In this document: one piece after another, positions 2,877 to 46,693 of the stretch
How positions within the stretch are numbered: the first letter of the stretch is position 1
Layout: the number at the start of each line of letters is the position of its first letter
Assembly: GCA_903878275.1 (NCBI GenBank)
Contig: CAIRHC010000011.1
Coordinates: 19,116 to 83,115 of the forward strand
Length of the DNA stretch: 64,000 bases
From: Candidatus Vogelbacteria bacterium
GTDB lineage: Bacteria; Patescibacteriota; Minisyncoccia; Phycocordibacterales; XYD1-FULL-46-19
Direction of reading: 5' to 3'
The notes under the pieces: model-generated
The model's database searches: none
The model's input: only the letters and a program-made list of their open reading frames with translations
Told to the model about the DNA's origin: nothing
Translations under genes and position numbers: made by a program

Positions 2877-4325
2877 TTATTTTTCTAAATCAAGAGTATT
2901 GTCAATACGAATTTTAGCGACAAATTCTGGCACGTGGCTGACTAGCACCATTGCTCCCTGATATTTATTTAGAGCTTCGGCAATTATCGGCAAATGACGA
3001 AAATTTATATGATTGGTCGGCTCATCCAAAATCAACAATCCGGGCTTCTGCAAAACCAAACGCGCGAAAGCCACCAAACCTTTTTGACCTTCCGACAAAT
3101 TACCAATTTTTTTATACACCAAATCGCCAGTGATTAAAAAGCTTGCCGCTGTCGCTCGTAATTTTTCTTCAATTTGTTCATCCATCACCGCTGACAAAGA
3201 TTGAAAAACCGTATCGTCAAAATTCAAAGTAGAAAAATCTTGACGGTAATAACCGACGCGAACCCCTGAAGCAATGACCGAGCCTTTCGCCTGATCATTC
3301 GCTAGAGCTTCGAGCAAAGTACTTTTGCCAATGCCGTTAGGACCAGACAAAAGTAAGTGTTGATTTTTCTTCAACGAAATATCGGTTTTTCTGGTCACTG
3401 GTTTGTGGTTTTTAATAACCGTAAAAGAAGAAATATTTAAAATTTCACCAGACAAATCTTCTTGAGCTGGAATAATAAACGGTCGAATCGTTTTGTCTTC
3501 GCGTCGAATATCCGCTTTTGATTCTTCCATCTCGTCCGCCAAATCACGCATTCTTTTCGCCAAGATTCGCATTTTTCCTCCCTTGTTGGCAAAAAAGTTG
3601 GCTTTATCTTTTTTCTCCTGAATGGTTTTAGACAGCTGGGCATTTTTAGCATTATCTTTTTCAATCTTGGCGGTGATTTGTTTTACGACATCAAAATAAT
3701 TGCCCGCATACTGCTCGACTTTTCTGGTAAAAACATCAAGATATAAAATGCCATCAGTGAAAGCATTTAGGAAATCGGCGTCGTGCGAAATGACGATGCA
3801 AGTTTTTTTGTAGTCTTTTAAAAATTTCGTCAGGTGTGCAATCCCCGCTTTGTCCAAATTATTTGTCGGCTCATCAAGAAGTAACAAATCAGGATCTTGA
3901 ATTAACGCCGAAGCTAAAAGTAAGCGCGCTTGTTGCCCACCAGAAAAAGATTTTACGATTCGATCGTGCGGGGCGTGCAAGTTGACCGCTTCTAAAATAT
4001 CATCGATCCGTGGATCAATGTCGTAAACTTTTTGTTTAAAACATTTTTGAAAAAATTCTCGCACCGTCAAATCCATTTGATCACGCGGAATAACTTGCTT
4101 CGCCGTCGCCACGGTAATTTTTTCAGACACGATAATTATGCCGGAATCTGGTTTTAAGGCTCCCGTCAAAAGCTGAAAAATTGTACTTTTCCCAGCGCCG
4201 TTTTGACCCATTAAAGTAATCTTGGTTCCCTGTTTAGCCGAAAAATCCACCTCGTCCAAAATCGGATGATTGTGACCGTAACCAAAAGATACCTCGTCAA
4301 ATTTTATAATTGATTCATTTGCCAT
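2877..4325 (-). CDS. ABC-F family ATPase (tandem ABC domains, no transmembrane domain)
   Basis: Two Walker A motifs (GQNGAGKST, GPNGIGKST) and two ABC signatures (LSGGQQ, LSEGQKG); the likely start is the internal Met of MANESIIKFDEV. Confidence 0.85.
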   Translation of the reverse strand: MANESIIKFDEVSFGYGHNHPILDEVDFSAKQGTKITLMGQNGAGKSTIFQLLTGALKPDSGIIIVSEKITVATAKQVIPRDQMDLTVREFFQKCFKQKVYDIDPRIDDILEAVNLHAPHDRIVKSFSGGQQARLLLASALIQDPDLLLLDEPTNNLDKAGIAHLTKFLKDYKKTCIVISHDADFLNAFTDGILYLDVFTRKVEQYAGNYFDVVKQITAKIEKDNAKNAQLSKTIQEKKDKANFFANKGGKMRILAKRMRDLADEMEESKADIRREDKTIRPFIIPAQEDLSGEILNISSFTVIKNHKPVTRKTDISLKKNQHLLLSGPNGIGKSTLLEALANDQAKGSVIASGVRVGYYRQDFSTLNFDDTVFQSLSAVMDEQIEEKLRATAASFLITGDLVYKKIGNLSEGQKGLVAFARLVLQKPGLLILDEPTNHINFRHLPIIAEALNKYQGAMVLVSHVPEFVAKIRIDNTLDLEK

Positions 4326-6671: not shown

Positions 6672-7736
6672 TTATTCGCACACCACATAATGTAAATACT
6701 CTGTTGTTCTTTTCGCCGAATAATCCCTATTTTCTGTTTTATCTGCCTTAAAACGACCATAGTCCTTCGTAAAATACCCATATTTACCCCTCAAACTCAT
6801 CACCTCCTTAATGTCATCCAACGTCATTAATCCCTCATTATTGTAACTTAAAAAAATATATTTTACCTTTGCCTTTAAAATCAAATCTTTAAAAACGTTT
6901 TTTACTTGAGAGCTCGAACAATAGAGTGATTTTTGTTCTTGATAATCTCGCAAACCAGTTTTTCCGTGAATTTCCGGGCTATCATATTTAGCGATAGTTT
7001 CAAGCAAGTGATAATTTGTGGCGTACTGTCGGTGATTATACGGCGGATCTAAATACAGAATATCACCATCAACTTTTTCTAATAAATTATTTATATCTTC
7101 ATTAAAAACTTCATGATCTTGATCATTTATTATTAATTGGGCAGGTTTTAAAACTAAACTGTTTTGTGCTGTTTTCTTTAATTTTTTCAGAAAAGCACCA
7201 TAAACGGAAGCGGTGTTTGCATACTTATCAATTGATTCAAGCAGGCTCGTGATTAAAAAGAAGTATTCATTATCCGAAATTAGTTTTTCTGTTTTCCATT
7301 TTTCAATTTTCTGACGAATCGCATCACACCTCATACCATTTTCGTCTGAAAAATACTGTCGTTCTTCTTTATTTTTCGTTCCACCGACACAGTAATTTTT
7401 ATAAATAAATCCTTTTGTACCTTTTAAATCTGCTAAATAATTACAGACAAAATCTTTTTTGTTTGCTAGCTCAATATTTTTCAATTCAGGAATTTCTTTT
7501 ATTAAATTAGAAAATTTTAATTGTTTGTGGTTGCCAATATAGTGTCTATTTAAAACATAACTGTAATACTGAATATCATTTGCGACAATTTTATAGCCTT
7601 TCTTTTTAAAATACCGCCCAACAATTCCGGTACCAGCAAATAAATCGCAAAAAGTATCGCAGTTTTTATCAACCACTTTATTTATTGATTCTTCCAAAAA
7701 TTCCAACAATGATAATTTACTACCGATGTAGTTCAT
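6672..7736 (-). CDS. DNA N6-adenine methyltransferase (D12/alpha class, Dam-like)
   Basis: N-terminal Y-x-G-S-K motif (MNYIGSK), FAGTG (motif I) and DPPY (motif IV) in the alpha-class order. Confidence 0.8.
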   Translation of the reverse strand: MNYIGSKLSLLEFLEESINKVVDKNCDTFCDLFAGTGIVGRYFKKKGYKIVANDIQYYSYVLNRHYIGNHKQLKFSNLIKEIPELKNIELANKKDFVCNYLADLKGTKGFIYKNYCVGGTKNKEERQYFSDENGMRCDAIRQKIEKWKTEKLISDNEYFFLITSLLESIDKYANTASVYGAFLKKLKKTAQNSLVLKPAQLIINDQDHEVFNEDINNLLEKVDGDILYLDPPYNHRQYATNYHLLETIAKYDSPEIHGKTGLRDYQEQKSLYCSSSQVKNVFKDLILKAKVKYIFLSYNNEGLMTLDDIKEVMSLRGKYGYFTKDYGRFKADKTENRDYSAKRTTEYLHYVVCE

Positions 7737-41494: not shown

Positions 41495-43744
41495 CTACTT
41501 CGCATAAGCCTCGGCTTCATCAAATTTAATTGAGATCAAACGCGAGACTGAATCGGCGCCAATGGTCACACCATACAAAATGCCGGCGCGGGACATTGTC
41601 TCACGATTGTGCGTAATTAAAATCAGTTGGGAATATTTTGACAAATTTTCAATCATATCGGCATATTTCCTCGAGTTGGCTTCATCAAGTGCCGCATCGG
41701 TCTCGTCAAGAATCAAAAATGGTGGTGGATTGACTTGAGACATCGCAAAGAGGAGCGCGATCGAAGTGAGCGCTCTTTCACCACCCGAAAGCATCGCCAG
41801 ACCTTTGATTTTTTTGCGTGGCAAATTGACCGCCACTTCCACTCCACCGCCACTTTCATCTTCGGCGGTATCTGGCACGATTGCCTCTTCCAAAAGATCT
41901 TCGGTACTCGCCTCTTTTTTCTTGCGCGGTAAAACCACTTCCAGTCCCGCCGAACCACCGCCAAACAAAATATTAAAGAATTTCTGAAATTCGCTGTTTA
42001 TTTTTTTTATACCAGTGCTAAAGTCTTCATTTATTTTGACCCGCAATTCGTCCATCACTTCGAGCAAGGCTTTTTTACTTTCGGCTAAATCCAAAAGTTC
42101 TTTCGCCAAATGAGCGTCGCGAGCCGTCACTTCTTCGTGTTCACGCAAGACATCGCTACTTTCCACACCCATATCTTCAAGGCGAATTTTCGCTCGTTCG
42201 ATTTTTCGCCGGCGGTCTTCTTGGGCGTGCCGTTCTTCGATCAATGCCTCTTTGTCATCAATCGGCAAACCCGAATAATCCAAAATTTCTCGTCCGAGTA
42301 AAACACCAGCTTCGCCAAGTTCTTGCCGAAAATTTTCGCGTTCCAAAGTCAGTGTTTCTTTTCTGGCGAGTAAGGTTTGAATCGTCGCCGAAAGTTCGCT
42401 TCTTTTTACGCGCCATTCAAACAAAGCTTTTTCGGCTTCGCGAGTTTCTTCGGTATTGTGAGTCATCGCCAAACGCAAAGTCCCCGCTTTATTTTGCCAG
42501 TCTCTTTCTTCGTCTTCTAGTTTGGTTATTTCTTCCAAAACCTGAATTTTTTCGGCTTCAAATTTATTTATTTCGAGCGTCAATTCTTCGGCTTTTTCTT
42601 CGGCAATATTTTCTTGTTCATAATTTACCAGCAAAGAATCGACAAACAATCGCAAATTTTGCACCACGTGCTTGACCAACGACAAATCAAAGGCTCGTTC
42701 TAATTCGCCAACATAATTATTTAAAGATTCTTGCCAACCTTTTACTTCGTGCAAAGAAATCGTGACAGACGAGCTAACCGCTTTTGGCAATTTGGCTTGC
42801 TTGGTTTCGTATTCAATCAAACCCTCAAGGCGACCAAGCTTGCGTGACAGGTCATCGTAACGCCCACGCACCACCCTGATTTGCGATTCAATTTCACGTA
42901 ATTCGTTTTGTTCGGCAATCTGACGAGTGTCACGAGTAGCAGTTTTTTCCAACTCCACCAAACGCTCGTCAATCTCGTGCAATTTTTCTTTTGGCGAAAT
43001 CAGATCATCCGCCAACCGATTTTCCCAGTGTTTCAAATAAATTTCTTCGCGACACAGGTATTCTTTGTAAATATCCGACATTTCTTTCTTGAGCTCGTTG
43101 ATTTTTTCAATTTTTTCTACCTGCTTTTTTAAAAATTTTAAGTGCGGCGCAATTTCTCGCCTGATCGATTCGACTTGTTTGATATTTTCTTCAGTCTTCG
43201 CCAATTTCTTTTCACTTTCTTGCAATTTCCATTGATAAATTTTCAAGCCTAGCGCATCTTCGATCATCCCACGACGCTCTATGGCATTGGCATTTAAAAT
43301 TCTATCCGCTTCACCTTGACTGATGATATGATGACCAGATGAGCCGAGCGACACACTCGCCAAAAGCTCAATAATATCTTTCAAGCGCACCGCCGAACCA
43401 TTGATCGAATATTCATTAGTGCCTTCACGGAAAACTTCACGCGAGATAACGACTTCATCAAAATCTAAATTAAAATGCCGATCGTGGTTGTCGAAAGTCA
43501 CCGTCACGCTCGCTCGCGACAGTCGCCCAAGCGAACTAGAACCATTGAAAATTAAATCTTCACCACGCTTACCACGCAAAGATTTTAAAGATTGTTCACC
43601 GAGCACCCAACGGAAAGCTTCGGCGACGTTTGACTTGCCCGAACCATTTGGTCCGACGATAGCTACTACCGGCGAATCAAAAAACAAAGTCGCCTTGCGA
43701 CCAAAAGATTTAAAACCCGAAATTTCCAACTTTTTGAGAGTCAC
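41495..43744 (-). CDS. smc: SMC-family chromosome condensation ATPase, unusually short (749 aa) with no recognisable hinge
   Basis: Canonical SMC N-terminus (LEISGFKSFGRKATLFFDSPVVAIVGPNGSGKSNVAEAFRWVLGEQSLKSLRG) and C-terminal signature/Walker B/D-loop (LSGGERALTSIALLFAM...LILDETDAALDE...ITHNRETM); the middle is coiled-coil-like with no Gly-rich hinge motif. Confidence 0.75.
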   Translation of the reverse strand: MTLKKLEISGFKSFGRKATLFFDSPVVAIVGPNGSGKSNVAEAFRWVLGEQSLKSLRGKRGEDLIFNGSSSLGRLSRASVTVTFDNHDRHFNLDFDEVVISREVFREGTNEYSINGSAVRLKDIIELLASVSLGSSGHHIISQGEADRILNANAIERRGMIEDALGLKIYQWKLQESEKKLAKTEENIKQVESIRREIAPHLKFLKKQVEKIEKINELKKEMSDIYKEYLCREEIYLKHWENRLADDLISPKEKLHEIDERLVELEKTATRDTRQIAEQNELREIESQIRVVRGRYDDLSRKLGRLEGLIEYETKQAKLPKAVSSSVTISLHEVKGWQESLNNYVGELERAFDLSLVKHVVQNLRLFVDSLLVNYEQENIAEEKAEELTLEINKFEAEKIQVLEEITKLEDEERDWQNKAGTLRLAMTHNTEETREAEKALFEWRVKRSELSATIQTLLARKETLTLERENFRQELGEAGVLLGREILDYSGLPIDDKEALIEERHAQEDRRRKIERAKIRLEDMGVESSDVLREHEEVTARDAHLAKELLDLAESKKALLEVMDELRVKINEDFSTGIKKINSEFQKFFNILFGGGSAGLEVVLPRKKKEASTEDLLEEAIVPDTAEDESGGGVEVAVNLPRKKIKGLAMLSGGERALTSIALLFAMSQVNPPPFLILDETDAALDEANSRKYADMIENLSKYSQLILITHNRETMSRAGILYGVTIGADSVSRLISIKFDEAEAYAK

Positions 43745-43816
43745 TATGTAAATTATAAACTATTAAGATAAAAACTTGAAGTGATTAAAGCCTTAAAACT
43801 GGGCATTTCTCGGCTA

Positions 43817-43845
43817 TTGACAAAACTGTTAAATAGGTGTATAAT
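43817..43845 (+). promoter_or_regulatory. consensus sigma-70 promoter TTGACA-17-TGTATAAT (extended -10)
   Basis: TTGACA at 43817-43822, a 17-nt spacer, a TG dinucleotide at 43838-43839 and TATAAT at 43840-43845, all seen directly. Confidence 0.6.
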
Positions 43846-43885
43846 AGAAAAAGTTAAAATTGTTCTTTAAAAATCAAAGTGCACT

Positions 43886-43944
43886 CTCCTTTGGTTGATA
43901 GATAATTTCTGCAATTGGGCAGGAGTCATCTTAAACCAAAGGAG
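43886..43944 (+). promoter_or_regulatory. 11-nt inverted repeat ctcctttggtt / aaccaaaggag (37-nt spacer) in the 5' leader of the 43970 gene
   Basis: Seen directly; the downstream arm ends 25 nt before the ATG. Confidence 0.35.
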
Positions 43945-43969
43945 AAACTGATACGAGGAAGATAACAAA

Positions 43970-44458
43970 ATGGAGATGGCGGAGTTTCGGAAAATGATAA
44001 GGTTCTCCGAGATTGTCGAGGTTCTCGCCAAAATCGAGAGAAAAGACAAGGTCGTACTAGCGGTACTTAAAAAATACCGTGAATGCTTCCGGGATCTTTC
44101 GTGGGTTCAGAGTTTGAGATTTGACTTTATTGGCTGTCCTGGAATTCGCAAGAATTCTCCAGAATATACCAAACTAGTCAAAGCCCAAAAAGCAGTAAAG
44201 AAGATCGCCGACGAAACACGCAAACTTCGAAATTGCCGACCGGAATTTCTCAAACTTTTGGCTAGCCTATTCGCACTCGAAAAGAGAGCGGACGAGCAAA
44301 TCAGCGAACACATAAGCCAAAATCCGGAAATGTCCGATAATGTAATCGAAATTATCCGAGAAGGAACAGGTAAACGGAACTATGACGGCTCACGGTTCAT
44401 CAACCAAAGCAATCGTCCGTTCCACCACCAAACAAACAAAAATAATGGTCGCCGCTAG
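43970..44458 (+). CDS. hypothetical protein (162 aa), no recognisable family
   Basis: ORF downstream of the consensus promoter; the composition is protein-like with Lys/Glu-rich helices. Confidence 0.45.
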   Translation: MEMAEFRKMIRFSEIVEVLAKIERKDKVVLAVLKKYRECFRDLSWVQSLRFDFIGCPGIRKNSPEYTKLVKAQKAVKKIADETRKLRNCRPEFLKLLASLFALEKRADEQISEHISQNPEMSDNVIEIIREGTGKRNYDGSRFINQSNRPFHHQTNKNNGRR

Positions 44459-44641
44459 ATAACACAAACGGCACCAAAAACGAACAACCTGACGTTTTAA
44501 CCATTTCGATCTTTGACATCGAGATGCAATACCAAAAAAAATAACTCGAGAAGTTTTTCGCACTTTGACTTCTCTTTCATTCTTAGATGTGTGTCTAGGC
44601 TTATGAGTCCAAAAGGACGAAATGAAGAAACCCGACAAAAA

Positions 44642-44673
44642 CTGCCCCGCTAAAAGCGGAGCAGTTTTTGTTT
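44642..44673 (+). terminator. intrinsic terminator (ctgccccgc/gcggagcag stem plus TTTTTGTTTG)
   Basis: Seen directly, about 185 nt downstream of the 43970 ORF stop. Confidence 0.5.
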
Positions 44674-44695
44674 GCTTTATTGAATTATCGTTCTT

Positions 44696-44937
44696 ACCAC
44701 CAAGTCGAAACCTTTTACTTTTTTAAAACTATTTTGTGCGATATTTTGTGCGATATCCAATCTCGCACAATCCTCCCGTCACCACCAAGGCGAGACTTGT
44801 TTCTGTTTAAAATCTCCGTCACCACCGTTCGCGGAGAATTAGCCTTTTGATGGCATTGAGAAAGGCAATTGAAAATTAAGAAGCTGAACAAAATCCTCAT
44901 CGCCACCAAGGCGAGACCTTTTACTTTTTTAAACCCT
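44696..44937 (+). repeat. three degenerate ~33-nt direct repeats (CCACCAAGGCGAGACCTTTTACTTTTTTAAAMC-like) with irregular spacing, plus a tandem 12-mer ttttgtgcgata x2
   Basis: Copies at about 44697-44731, 44782-44813 and 44903-44937; the motif core ccttttacttttttaaac recurs as its reverse complement ggtttaaaaaagtaaaagg at 45049-45067. Confidence 0.5.
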
Positions 44938-44946
44938 TGCGGAATT

Positions 44947-45011
44947 GTCGCCAGCATGGTTTTCGCCCTTTGTTTTTTTTGTTGCTTTAGCAACAAGGGC
45001 GAAATGGCGAC
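44947..45011 (+). ncRNA. nested stem-loop element (outer gtcgcca/tggcgac, middle ttcgccc/gggcgaa with a 10-nt U-rich bulge, inner ttgttgc/gcaacaa with a ttta loop) inside the non-coding island, candidate structured RNA
   Basis: Complementarities read directly; about 15 nt downstream is the short GC hairpin agcccc/ggggct plus T5 at 45028-45046. Confidence 0.25.
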
Positions 45012-45023
45012 TTGGAGCAGAGG

Positions 45024-45046
45024 AAAAAGCCCCGCTGGGGCTTTTT
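45024..45046. terminator. short bidirectional terminator-like hairpin (agcccc-gct-ggggct) with flanking A and T runs
   Basis: Seen directly; it would serve rnc on the minus strand and the non-coding island on the plus strand. Confidence 0.45.
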
Positions 45047-45079
45047 CTGTGGTTTAAAAAAGTAAAAGGTTGAGCCTCT

Positions 45080-45790: not shown

Positions 45791-46693
45791 TTACCGCGCC
45801 ATTAATTTCTTTATCGCCTTGGTAATAATCGGTAAAATGTCATCATACATTCGAAGCTCGGTCACCTCTTCAATCGCAAACCAACCGACATTGTCTAAGC
45901 CACTTTTTTCTTCCAACTTCAACGTTTTCTTAGTTTTACATTCCGCCAAAAAATAATTGACTTGTCGACGAATTTTACCTCTTTCCGGATCAGAAGCAAT
46001 ATATTCATTCAAACCCAGCTCACCTTTAATTTCTGAATCAACTGAAACTTCTTCTTTGACCTCACGAACGGTGCCAGCTTCGACTTCTTCGCCTACTTCG
46101 ATATGCCCTTTTGGCAAAGTCCAATAACCAAAGACATCGTGAACCAAAGCCAGAAAAATTTTATCTTTGTCGCGACAATAGACCACCGCCCCGCCGAGCT
46201 TTTCGACTGGCATATCTTCATAAGCGACATCAGGTTTGCGAATTTTGCGACCAGAGACTTGATCTTTGTCTGGCTCGCCAAGTTCTTTGTACACAGTGCC
46301 GAGCACGCCGTTGATAAAACGTCCGCTATTTTCTCCACCGAAAGTTTTACCGAGTTCAATGGCTTCGTTTATCGCCACTTTGGCTGGCACATCTTTGCGA
46401 TTACCAAAAATTAATTCGTACAAACCAAGACGCAAAATATTGCGATCAACCACTGCAATCTGTCCGATCGGCCAATCGGGTGCCGCCTTTTCGAGGATAG
46501 AATCAAGCTTATCTTTATGAGAAATAACACCGTCCACCAACTCATTTACAAAAGCCATTTCATCCAAACCTGGTCCAAATTCTTCCACCACCGCCTCGGT
46601 CACTTTATCGAGTTTTGAAGTATCGCCGTCGTTGAAATCCCAATCAAAGAGGATTTGCATTGCTAAACTCCGAGATAAATGCCGATTAGCCAT
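45791..46693 (-). CDS. nusB: NusB-like antitermination domain fused to a C-terminal Nudix hydrolase domain
   Basis: N-terminal ~135 aa match NusB (SRSLAMQILF...DRNILRLGLYEL...PAKVAINEAIELGKTFG...GRFINGVLG); C-terminal ~150 aa carry the Nudix box GHIEVGEEVEAGTVREVKEEVSV. Confidence 0.8.
   Translation of the reverse strand: MANRHLSRSLAMQILFDWDFNDGDTSKLDKVTEAVVEEFGPGLDEMAFVNELVDGVISHKDKLDSILEKAAPDWPIGQIAVVDRNILRLGLYELIFGNRKDVPAKVAINEAIELGKTFGGENSGRFINGVLGTVYKELGEPDKDQVSGRKIRKPDVAYEDMPVEKLGGAVVYCRDKDKIFLALVHDVFGYWTLPKGHIEVGEEVEAGTVREVKEEVSVDSEIKGELGLNEYIASDPERGKIRRQVNYFLAECKTKKTLKLEEKSGLDNVGWFAIEEVTELRMYDDILPIITKAIKKLMAR

Follow-up and report, generated by a model that had tools for sequence, protein, structure and literature searches.

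The DNA analysed here (the window) is a stretch of 64,000 nucleotides (nt) of the Candidatus Vogelbacteria contig CAIRHC010000011.1 (assembly GCA_903878275.1), and its subject is the island of 1.3 kb that separates the genes rnc and smc. Comparison of gene order identifies this island as an insertion in the genome of a Candidate Phyla Radiation (CPR) bacterium of the Paceibacteria-like kind. The island has two parts: a conserved cassette (43817-44686) and a tail that is private to this locus (44687-45079). In our reading, which we consider probable, the island represents an inserted single-gene cassette with a structured mRNA and a hammerhead ribozyme, reduced in this copy, together with a tail that is not part of the cassette and most likely arose by local rearrangement. 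The cassette is very rare, self-contained and built around a single gene; its hammerhead is of a known kind, while the architecture around it is undescribed.

The gap between rnc and smc is 1335 nt in the window (43745-45079) and 72-76 nt in the relatives L062-L065, which served as the synteny reference and whose Rnc proteins are 73-74% identical to that of the window. Window and relatives have a common gene order of dnaE, rnhB, a hypothetical gene, rpmF (L32), nusB-NUDIX, rnc and smc. In L063 and L064, smc is followed by the RNase R gene on the opposite strand, in L065 only after two small open reading frames (ORFs), and the L062 contig stops inside smc. Judged by its Rnc homologues, the organism falls among CPR bacteria that resemble Paceibacterota/Vogelbacteria. 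Both rnc and smc lie on the minus strand of the window and the cassette ORF on the plus strand. Island and window do not differ in GC content (0.405 vs 0.400), so there is no compositional sign of foreign origin. A preliminary description of this DNA had held that rnc and smc, on the same strand and contiguous in many bacteria, are separated by an inserted module, and both points are borne out: the two genes are adjacent in relatives, and the ORF and its RNA elements recur in four unrelated contexts. Its suggestion of a small protein plus RNA system came close to the truth but misplaced the RNA part, because the leader, 3' hairpin and hammerhead lie at 43860-44629, outside the repeat-rich tail.

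Only four clusters of the encoded protein family turned up when 1.84 billion cluster representatives were searched exhaustively with HMMER, and a word-indexed search found a single homologue of the ORF product. The cassette is thus far known from five metagenomic contigs or contigs of metagenome-assembled genomes (MAGs), window included, which resemble those of CPR bacteria. The L001 copy adjoins rplL/rplJ, the L057 and L058 copies are located between gyrB and thrS, and the L059 copy between a Cu-oxidase_4 gene and an acetyltransferase gene. Because the neighbours differ among the four loci, the gene is not syntenic and forms a single unit placed in varied housekeeping neighbourhoods. All four loci have the promoter, a 5' stretch with a short box, a two-part leader hairpin and a 3' hairpin (P3) in common, and these non-coding flanks are conserved despite saturated synonymous sites. 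No motif is shared by the genomic flanks of the four loci. A tRNA-linked island was considered and rejected, since ARAGORN found no tRNA or transfer-messenger RNA (tmRNA) near any copy.

The ORF encodes a protein of 162 amino acids (aa), which the preliminary description had placed in no known family; indeed, it has no match in Pfam, PHROGs or PADLOC, nor in a PDB sequence search. Between the window and L001, the proportion of nonsynonymous differences (pN) is 0.24 against a saturated synonymous proportion (pS) of 0.74, and the resulting dN/dS of 0.085, an average over the whole divergence that is silent on recent decay, marks the ORF as a genuine gene kept by purifying selection. Family proteins range from 162 to 248 aa, and the window protein is without the N-terminal ~80 aa of its homologues; its frame of 162 codons is intact and keeps most of the invariant or near-invariant residues of the four family members. 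AlphaFold2 modelled the full-length homologue P0002, encoded by L001, entirely as helices, with residues ~90-190 forming a confident core; the C-terminus is conserved and basic (G-x-G-K/R-x-x-YDGSRFINQSNRPFH...RR) and is unstructured in the model.

The ORF is preceded by a sigma-70 promoter, described as textbook in the preliminary account and agreeing with the consensus at every hexamer position (Table 1). L001, L057 and L059 each have a homologous promoter in the corresponding position, and the likeness extends beyond the hexamers. The leader inverted repeat, earlier given as 11 nt (43886-43944), was found to have arms of 12 nt that are 100% complementary (43885-43896 and 43934-43945), and the leader folds better than its shuffles (z = -4.7). 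The 3' arm of the leader hairpin contains the Shine-Dalgarno (SD) sequence in L001, L057 and L059 as well. The window leader carries a second SD-like sequence, GAGGAAG, outside P1, so the SD may be only partly occluded here. When 0.78 Mb of fetched sequence was searched with a covariance model of the leader (model R2), the family loci alone gave matches.

To compare base pairing among the copies, we aligned the conserved RNA parts of the four family sequences. The modelled pairs are standard in 93% of cells, compared to 43-49% when the partners are slid, and 8 pairs have changed on both sides. The leader hairpins P1 and P2 (helices 2 and 3) are paired in 91-98% of cells, with 5 pairs changed on both sides. 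Helix 1 is formed over a long range by the 5' box in the leader and the 3' box in the loop of P3; it is paired in 92% of cells, with 2 pairs changed on both sides. The window, L001 and L059 pair UCAAAGUGC with GCACUUUGA, and L057 pairs AAGUGUGU with ACACACUU. The cognate 5'-3' duplexes reach -9.9 to -14.2 kcal/mol, which was matched by 0-1 of 1000 loop shuffles; the window duplex has -13.3 kcal/mol, and none of 1000 shuffles was as good. These results are suggestive of a covarying pairing between the two ends of the cassette mRNA. The 3' untranslated regions (UTRs) of L001, L057 and L059 contain a further domain with a likely GUGCUU/AAGCAC pseudoknot, which the window copy is without. We also noted a second promoter-like site (TTGACA-18-AAAAAT, 44513-44542, plus strand, 10/12 positions) in the 3' UTR just upstream of P3; about 2 such sites are expected by chance in a region of that size. 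If active, it would give a short RNA made of P3, hammerhead and terminator, with a loop complementary to the mRNA 5' box.

Directly after P3 lies an element with the form of a type III hammerhead, UUCAU-U/CUUAGA-UGUGUG-UCUAGG-CUUAUGA-GUCC-AAAA-GGAC-GAAA-UGAA, in which the slash marks the predicted cleavage after U44581 (triplet AUU, with H17 = U44581). The GAAA of G12-A13-A14 is present, A44622 pairs with U44580 (A15.1-U16.1), and the triplet agrees with the N-U-H rule. The same element is found in L001 and L057, with the cores CUGACGA and CUGAUGA, respectively. The preliminary description had treated everything after the ORF as a non-coding tail; the features that it listed are there, at the coordinates given or a few bases away, but the start of that segment is the conserved hairpin and hammerhead (44548-44626), which it had missed.

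An exact search of IMG/VR with the 18-mer of stem II and GAAA retrieved 55 contigs (L002-L056), nearly all of them with a type III hammerhead that has the same stem II, a UGWGUG loop on stem I and a hairpin ahead. From 39 phage-contig hammerheads of this set (97.9% paired, 176 cells changed on both sides) we built the covariance model R1, whose scores were 65.8 bits for the window (E about 6e-19), 75 bits for L001 and 73.9 bits for L057. The window score is inflated because the reference sequences were selected through an 18-mer that they have in common with the window, although the remaining stems and the core still fit. The model aligned window positions 44569-44629 end to end with 15/15 pairs standard, and the minimum-free-energy fold of the window forms stems I and II. 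In stem I, the window and L001 differ by two compensatory pairs, which argues that the hammerhead structure is maintained. With Rfam, no hammerhead was found in the window even at E <= 10, and only tRNAs were reported in the window and related loci; L001 itself reached only 17.7 bits against Hammerhead_1. The Rfam gathering score discriminates poorly for this subtype, since 7 loci with perfect cores also fall short of it.

Some further observations concern this subtype. The large phage-associated type III subfamily of L002-L056 (GUCC-AAAA-GGAC, UGWGUG) is often preceded by the hairpin GGUGUCUUCAAAGACACC, and it stayed below the Rfam gathering scores in every locus tested. On L196 (1699-1800, minus strand), a hammerhead lies between the genes of a 391-aa membrane protein and a glycosyltransferase; a long hairpin with a 29-nt loop stands ahead of it, and it ends 10 nt before the downstream start codon. 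The subtype was also seen in L186, L187, L192, L193 and L197, located between cistrons after a hairpin. Prophage hammerheads have been proposed to act in RNA processing (PMC3088659), and this placement, seen in phage contigs and in others, fits that proposal. L020 (IMGVR_UViG_2615840519_000001, 377 nt) consists mostly of hammerhead-bearing sequence and might be a viroid-like or satellite RNA that was deposited as a virus. The viral contig L002 (7.8 kb) carries, besides its hammerhead, a permuted tmRNA (RF04321, 79 bits) at 3258-3515 on the plus strand.

Several points weigh against our reading and have to be set beside it. G5 of the catalytic core is invariant in the 39 references and is also G in L001 and L057, whereas the window has U44602 at this position. 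This is the sole departure of the window hammerhead: the conserved core C3-U4-G5-A6-N7-G8-A9 is complete in L001 and L057 and broken in the window. Since core changes generally abolish or strongly lower hammerhead activity (PMC3088659), the window ribozyme is probably impaired, and its cleavage is probably weak or lost. U44602 may also be a sequencing error in the MAG. L059, which has the leader and 3' hairpin, gave no match to model R1; the family can therefore do without the ribozyme. The covariation statistics are weak because there are only four independent sequences, and the pair of 5' and 3' boxes could alternatively work at the DNA level as inverted repeats; an interaction at the RNA level is favoured because the 3' box sits in the loop of a conserved hairpin. 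Finally, with regard to mobility, the cassette encodes neither an integrase nor a transposase, and a target duplication was not found.

Given that the window copy is without the N-terminal ~80 aa and the 3'-UTR pseudoknot domain and has the G5U core, we regard it as a reduced variant. The same features could be taken further, namely that the cassette is a decaying, non-functional remnant, with a pseudogene-like truncated ORF, a dead ribozyme and an island heading to deletion. The missing N-terminus, the absence of the 3'-UTR domain found in the three other loci, the U at an otherwise invariant position and a tail that resembles rearrangement debris all suit such decay. However, the ORF has kept its frame and most of the residues common to the family, its dN/dS against L001 supports a real gene, and the promoter (12/12), leader hairpin, kissing boxes and all 15 hammerhead pairs are intact, so that we hold decay to be unlikely.

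The cassette is closed by an intrinsic terminator-like hairpin, which the preliminary description had put at 44642-44673 and which was found at 44635-44671. At the same place L001 and L059 have an unrelated GC-rich terminator-like hairpin, and L057 only a short palindrome (GGAGTACTCC). The coordinates of all features are collected in Table 1.

Table 1. Features of the cassette and of the tail in the rnc-smc island (window positions)
Feature	Position	Strand	Remarks
Sigma-70 promoter TTGACA-17-TATAAT	43817-43845	+	12/12 consensus positions
Conserved 5' leader end TTGTTCTTTAAAA	within 43860-43882	+	common to all four loci
5' box TCAAAGTGC	43874-43882	+	complementary to the loop of 3' hairpin P3
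Leader hairpin P1	43886-43895 with 43935-43944	+	3' arm carries AGGAG
Leader hairpin P2	43902-43912 with 43919-43929	+	paired in the family alignment
162-aa ORF	43970-44458	+	member of the four-cluster all-alpha family
3' hairpin P3 (GAGAAG/CTTCTC)	44548-44574	+	15-nt loop; helix 4 of the alignment
3' box GCACTTTGA	44560-44568	+	in the 15-nt loop of P3; complementary to the 5' box
Type III hammerhead	44576-44626	+	directly after P3; match to model R1
Stem III	44576-44580 with 44622-44626	+	open stem
Stem I	44582-44587 with 44594-44599	+	loop UGUGUG
Core CUUAUGA	44600-44606	+	U44602 in place of G5
Stem II GUCC-AAAA-GGAC	44607-44618	+	followed by GAAA, 44619-44622
Intrinsic terminator-like hairpin	44635-44671	+	closes the cassette
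Repeat R1	44697-44727	+	31 nt; followed by a hairpin
Tandem 12-mer	44730-44753	+	palindromic partner adjoining
Palindrome	44734-44770	+	within the stretch of direct repeats
Repeat R2	44782-44812	+	31 nt; followed by a hairpin
Repeat R3	44903-44933	+	31 nt; followed by a hairpin
Nested three-stem hairpin	44947-45011	.	between repeat R3 and the rnc terminator
rnc terminator hairpin	45023-45047	-	native rnc 3' flank
Repeat copy R4	45051-45077	-	reverse complement of R1 and R3; native rnc 3' flank

Together, these elements suggest how the cassette might work. The consensus promoter would drive an mRNA of ~0.8 kb, in which the two-part leader hairpin would bury the ribosome-binding site and keep translation low unless opened. 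In vivo, cleavage by the hammerhead after U44581 would remove the terminator and leave a 3' end consisting of P3 and a 2',3'-cyclic phosphate; such a ribozyme-made end would be defined independently of the genomic context. The loop of P3 could then kiss the box ~15 nt from the presumed 5' end and tie the two ends together, which would affect stability, translation or both. The all-helical protein with its basic tail might open the leader hairpin of its own mRNA, a form of autoregulation. In the window copy, with its cleavage probably weak or lost, the terminator would take over 3'-end formation. A bolder version of this scheme sees the cassette as an undescribed selfish or tightly auto-controlled CPR unit, whose mRNA is processed by its own hammerhead and closed by the kissing interaction, and whose protein binds that RNA and controls its expression or even its spread between genomes; we think this quite unlikely.

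The tail has a different character. The preliminary description had listed here three degenerate direct repeats of ~33 nt at irregular spacing, a tandem 12-mer with an inverted partner and a nested three-stem hairpin, and each was recovered, the repeats as 31-nt copies starting at 44697, 44782 and 44903. Repeats R1, R2 and R3 are 100, 77 and 94% identical to the reference copy, the hairpin that follows is different for each of them, and a search allowing 3 mismatches gave 2 copies compared to 0.00 in shuffles. The inverted repeat core (45049-45067) and terminal terminator, which had been counted as part of the module, are indeed present but belong to the native flank of rnc: in the closest relative (Rnc 86% identical), GCGGAGACTTTTTGCTTTTTAAAACCACAGAAAAAGCCCCAGCGGG stands directly after the rnc stop codon and is nearly the same as R4 and the terminator. 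Because of this counterpart, R4 and the terminator are the native rnc 3' flank and R1-R3 its inverted, degenerate copies. Since the repeats, nested hairpin and terminal terminator have no counterpart in the other loci, they lie outside the conserved module.

Searches for the tail elsewhere gave little. It resembles neither the cassette itself nor the other cassette loci, poly-T stretches were its only matches in the rest of the 64-kb window, and its interpretation as a degenerate second cassette copy was dropped because no alignment had an E value below 0.25. No further copy of the repeat, whose recurrence elsewhere in the genome the preliminary description had wanted checked, was found in the window or in the other loci. 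Among 185,579 species genomes (one per species, the source genome not among them), the repeat core gave 111 single chance matches, none of them in a relative. A CRISPR (clustered regularly interspaced short palindromic repeats) array was rejected for the 31-nt repeats, which are 3 copies of 77-100% identity at spacings of 85 and 121 nt. The segment R3...R4 does have terminal inverted repeats like those of a miniature inverted-repeat transposable element (MITE) or a repetitive extragenic palindromic (REP) element, but it has no further copy in the window, its flanks differ and thus show no target duplication, and one of its arms is the native rnc flank. Downstream of the L057 cassette (7150-7230) we noted two 26-nt palindromic direct repeats (TTGTGGAAGTTAAACRTYCACAAAAA) that recall the palindrome of the window tail (TTGTGCGATA...TCGCACAA); the similarity is not significant.

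The preliminary description had also offered an RNA locus as one identity of the island, and the tail 44687-45079 might be the real functional element of it, either a small RNA or a protein-binding array. The tail folds much better than its shuffles on both strands (z = -6.3 and -6.7). The R3 and R4 arms (44909-44935 and 45051-45077) are 27 nt long and 89% complementary, so that a duplex of about 24-27 bp can form between them, enclosing the nested hairpin and the terminator; it would have the length of an RNase III substrate and lie right beside rnc. However, this duplex requires read-through of the terminator, the tail has no Rfam match and no homologue in the other loci or the window, and the repeat core occurs in the species genomes only by chance. 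A functional tail therefore seems highly improbable to us, and the tail is most likely the scar of a local rearrangement at a variable spot downstream of rnc.

In the closest relative (L060, L061 and L177-L185), 10/10 independent assemblies, contig JAPLZM010000114.1 of GCA_026395015.1 included, break off 11-46 nt past the rnc stop codon, either just short of the shared terminator or inside it, a pattern suggestive of repeated, variable or polymorphic sequence there. These breaks could also be drawn into another account, in which a phage or another integrative element attaches at the rnc 3' flank and has left behind the cassette as cargo and the 31-nt repeats as att scars of recurrent integration and excision. 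The occurrence of the hammerhead subtype, by exact match, in 55 viral contigs of IMG/VR fits this account, as does the derivation of the repeats at the junctions from the native rnc flank. But neither the island nor its immediate neighbours contain an integrase, a phage gene or a PHROG match, a blastn comparison of the island with 50,697 phage records returned nothing, and the GC content is that of the window. Moreover, attL/attR pairs look different, for the repeats here run opposite to the native copy and are separated by only 54-90 nt, and the other three loci are without such repeats. We judge cargo of this kind to be very unlikely and retain the inserted cassette with a rearranged tail as the preferred reading.

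The genes on either side of the island gave some additional observations. In the window, smc starts with GTG and is without a Shine-Dalgarno sequence (43742-43760, minus strand), while relatives have AGGTG ahead of ATG; a TATAAT-like hexamer is present ~7 nt upstream of the smc start on the minus strand of the window. To judge from these sequences, the insertion may have left smc with a new promoter, from which it would be transcribed as a leaderless mRNA. A fusion of NusB with a NUDIX hydrolase domain (45791-46693, minus strand) is kept in all relatives examined. A homologue of Smc, P0184 (1308 aa), contains an intein and LAGLIDADG domains (PF14890, PF14528).

These results show that small CPR genomes tolerate insertions within the otherwise conserved rnc-smc pair, and they add a very rare orphan protein family. 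Bacteria and phages have thousands of hammerheads, and to our knowledge most of these have been assigned no biological role. The family offers natural variants with an intact core (L001, L057), with G5U (window) and with no ribozyme (L059), in a fixed and minimal setting of one promoter, one gene, one ribozyme and one end-pairing, and thereby a comparison for the role of a 3'-terminal self-cleaving ribozyme in a bacterial mRNA.

Among known systems, the closest to the 3' element are the type III hammerheads of phages and bacteria (Rfam clan CL00010, RF00008; Perreault et al. 2011, PMC3088659). The window element agrees with them in its closed stems I and II and open stem III, in the identical GUCC-AAAA-GGAC, UGUGUG loop, GAAA and AUU triplet, and in its position immediately behind a hairpin where a cistron ends, an arrangement seen in dozens of phage contigs. 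It differs in the U at G5 and in being followed by a terminator-like hairpin (in L057, a short palindrome) and not by a second gene. The cassette also has a dedicated leader, to which the other hammerhead loci gave no match with model R2, and the 5'-3' pairing; the pattern of the 3' loop had 0 matches in the viral contigs, and no complementary 5' box was found in the other hammerhead loci, for which L196 alone was checked by eye.

In mRNAs of the hok/sok type, the ribosome-binding site is sequestered, a 3' element pairs with the 5' end, and 3' processing alters the mRNA end. The cassette mRNA resembles them in its leader-sequestered ribosome-binding site, its 5'-3' fold-back and its predicted 3' processing, which in the cassette would be done by a ribozyme and not by exonucleases. 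Its product is a soluble helical protein of 162-248 aa and not a small membrane toxin. A hok-like type I toxin-antitoxin system was rejected, as the 162-aa helical product has no predicted membrane character and no antisense gene was identified.

Obelisks share with the cassette an RNA unit of ~1 kb (in L001 and L057), a helical protein of ~240 aa with a conserved, basic and unstructured region near its C-terminal end, a type III hammerhead and a superficial resemblance of YDGSRF to YKDHGSRRF. The cassette hammerhead is on the sense strand, whereas those of Obelisks are mostly antisense, and the beta-strand 'clasp' is not predicted in the cassette protein. Homology to Oblin-1 (domain-A, GYxDxG) was rejected, since hhalign of the family profile A6 with 13 Oblin-1 sequences gave a probability of 0.08% (E = 0.63), and the hidden Markov model search of 1.84 billion proteins yielded only the four family clusters. 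A rod-like fold was likewise dismissed, with only 11-14% of the minimum-free-energy pairs on one antidiagonal, and so was a circular RNA without a DNA copy, as the element is part of chromosomal contigs, where it is flanked by housekeeping genes and preceded by a sigma-70 promoter. The presence of a single hammerhead per unit excludes a retrozyme or similar circular RNA.

In engineered ribozyme insulators of the RiboJ type, self-cleavage makes the end of a transcript independent of the flanking sequence. The cassette ribozyme is natural and located at the 3' rather than the 5' end; as a functional analogy only, an end that does not depend on context would suit a cassette that lands in different contexts.

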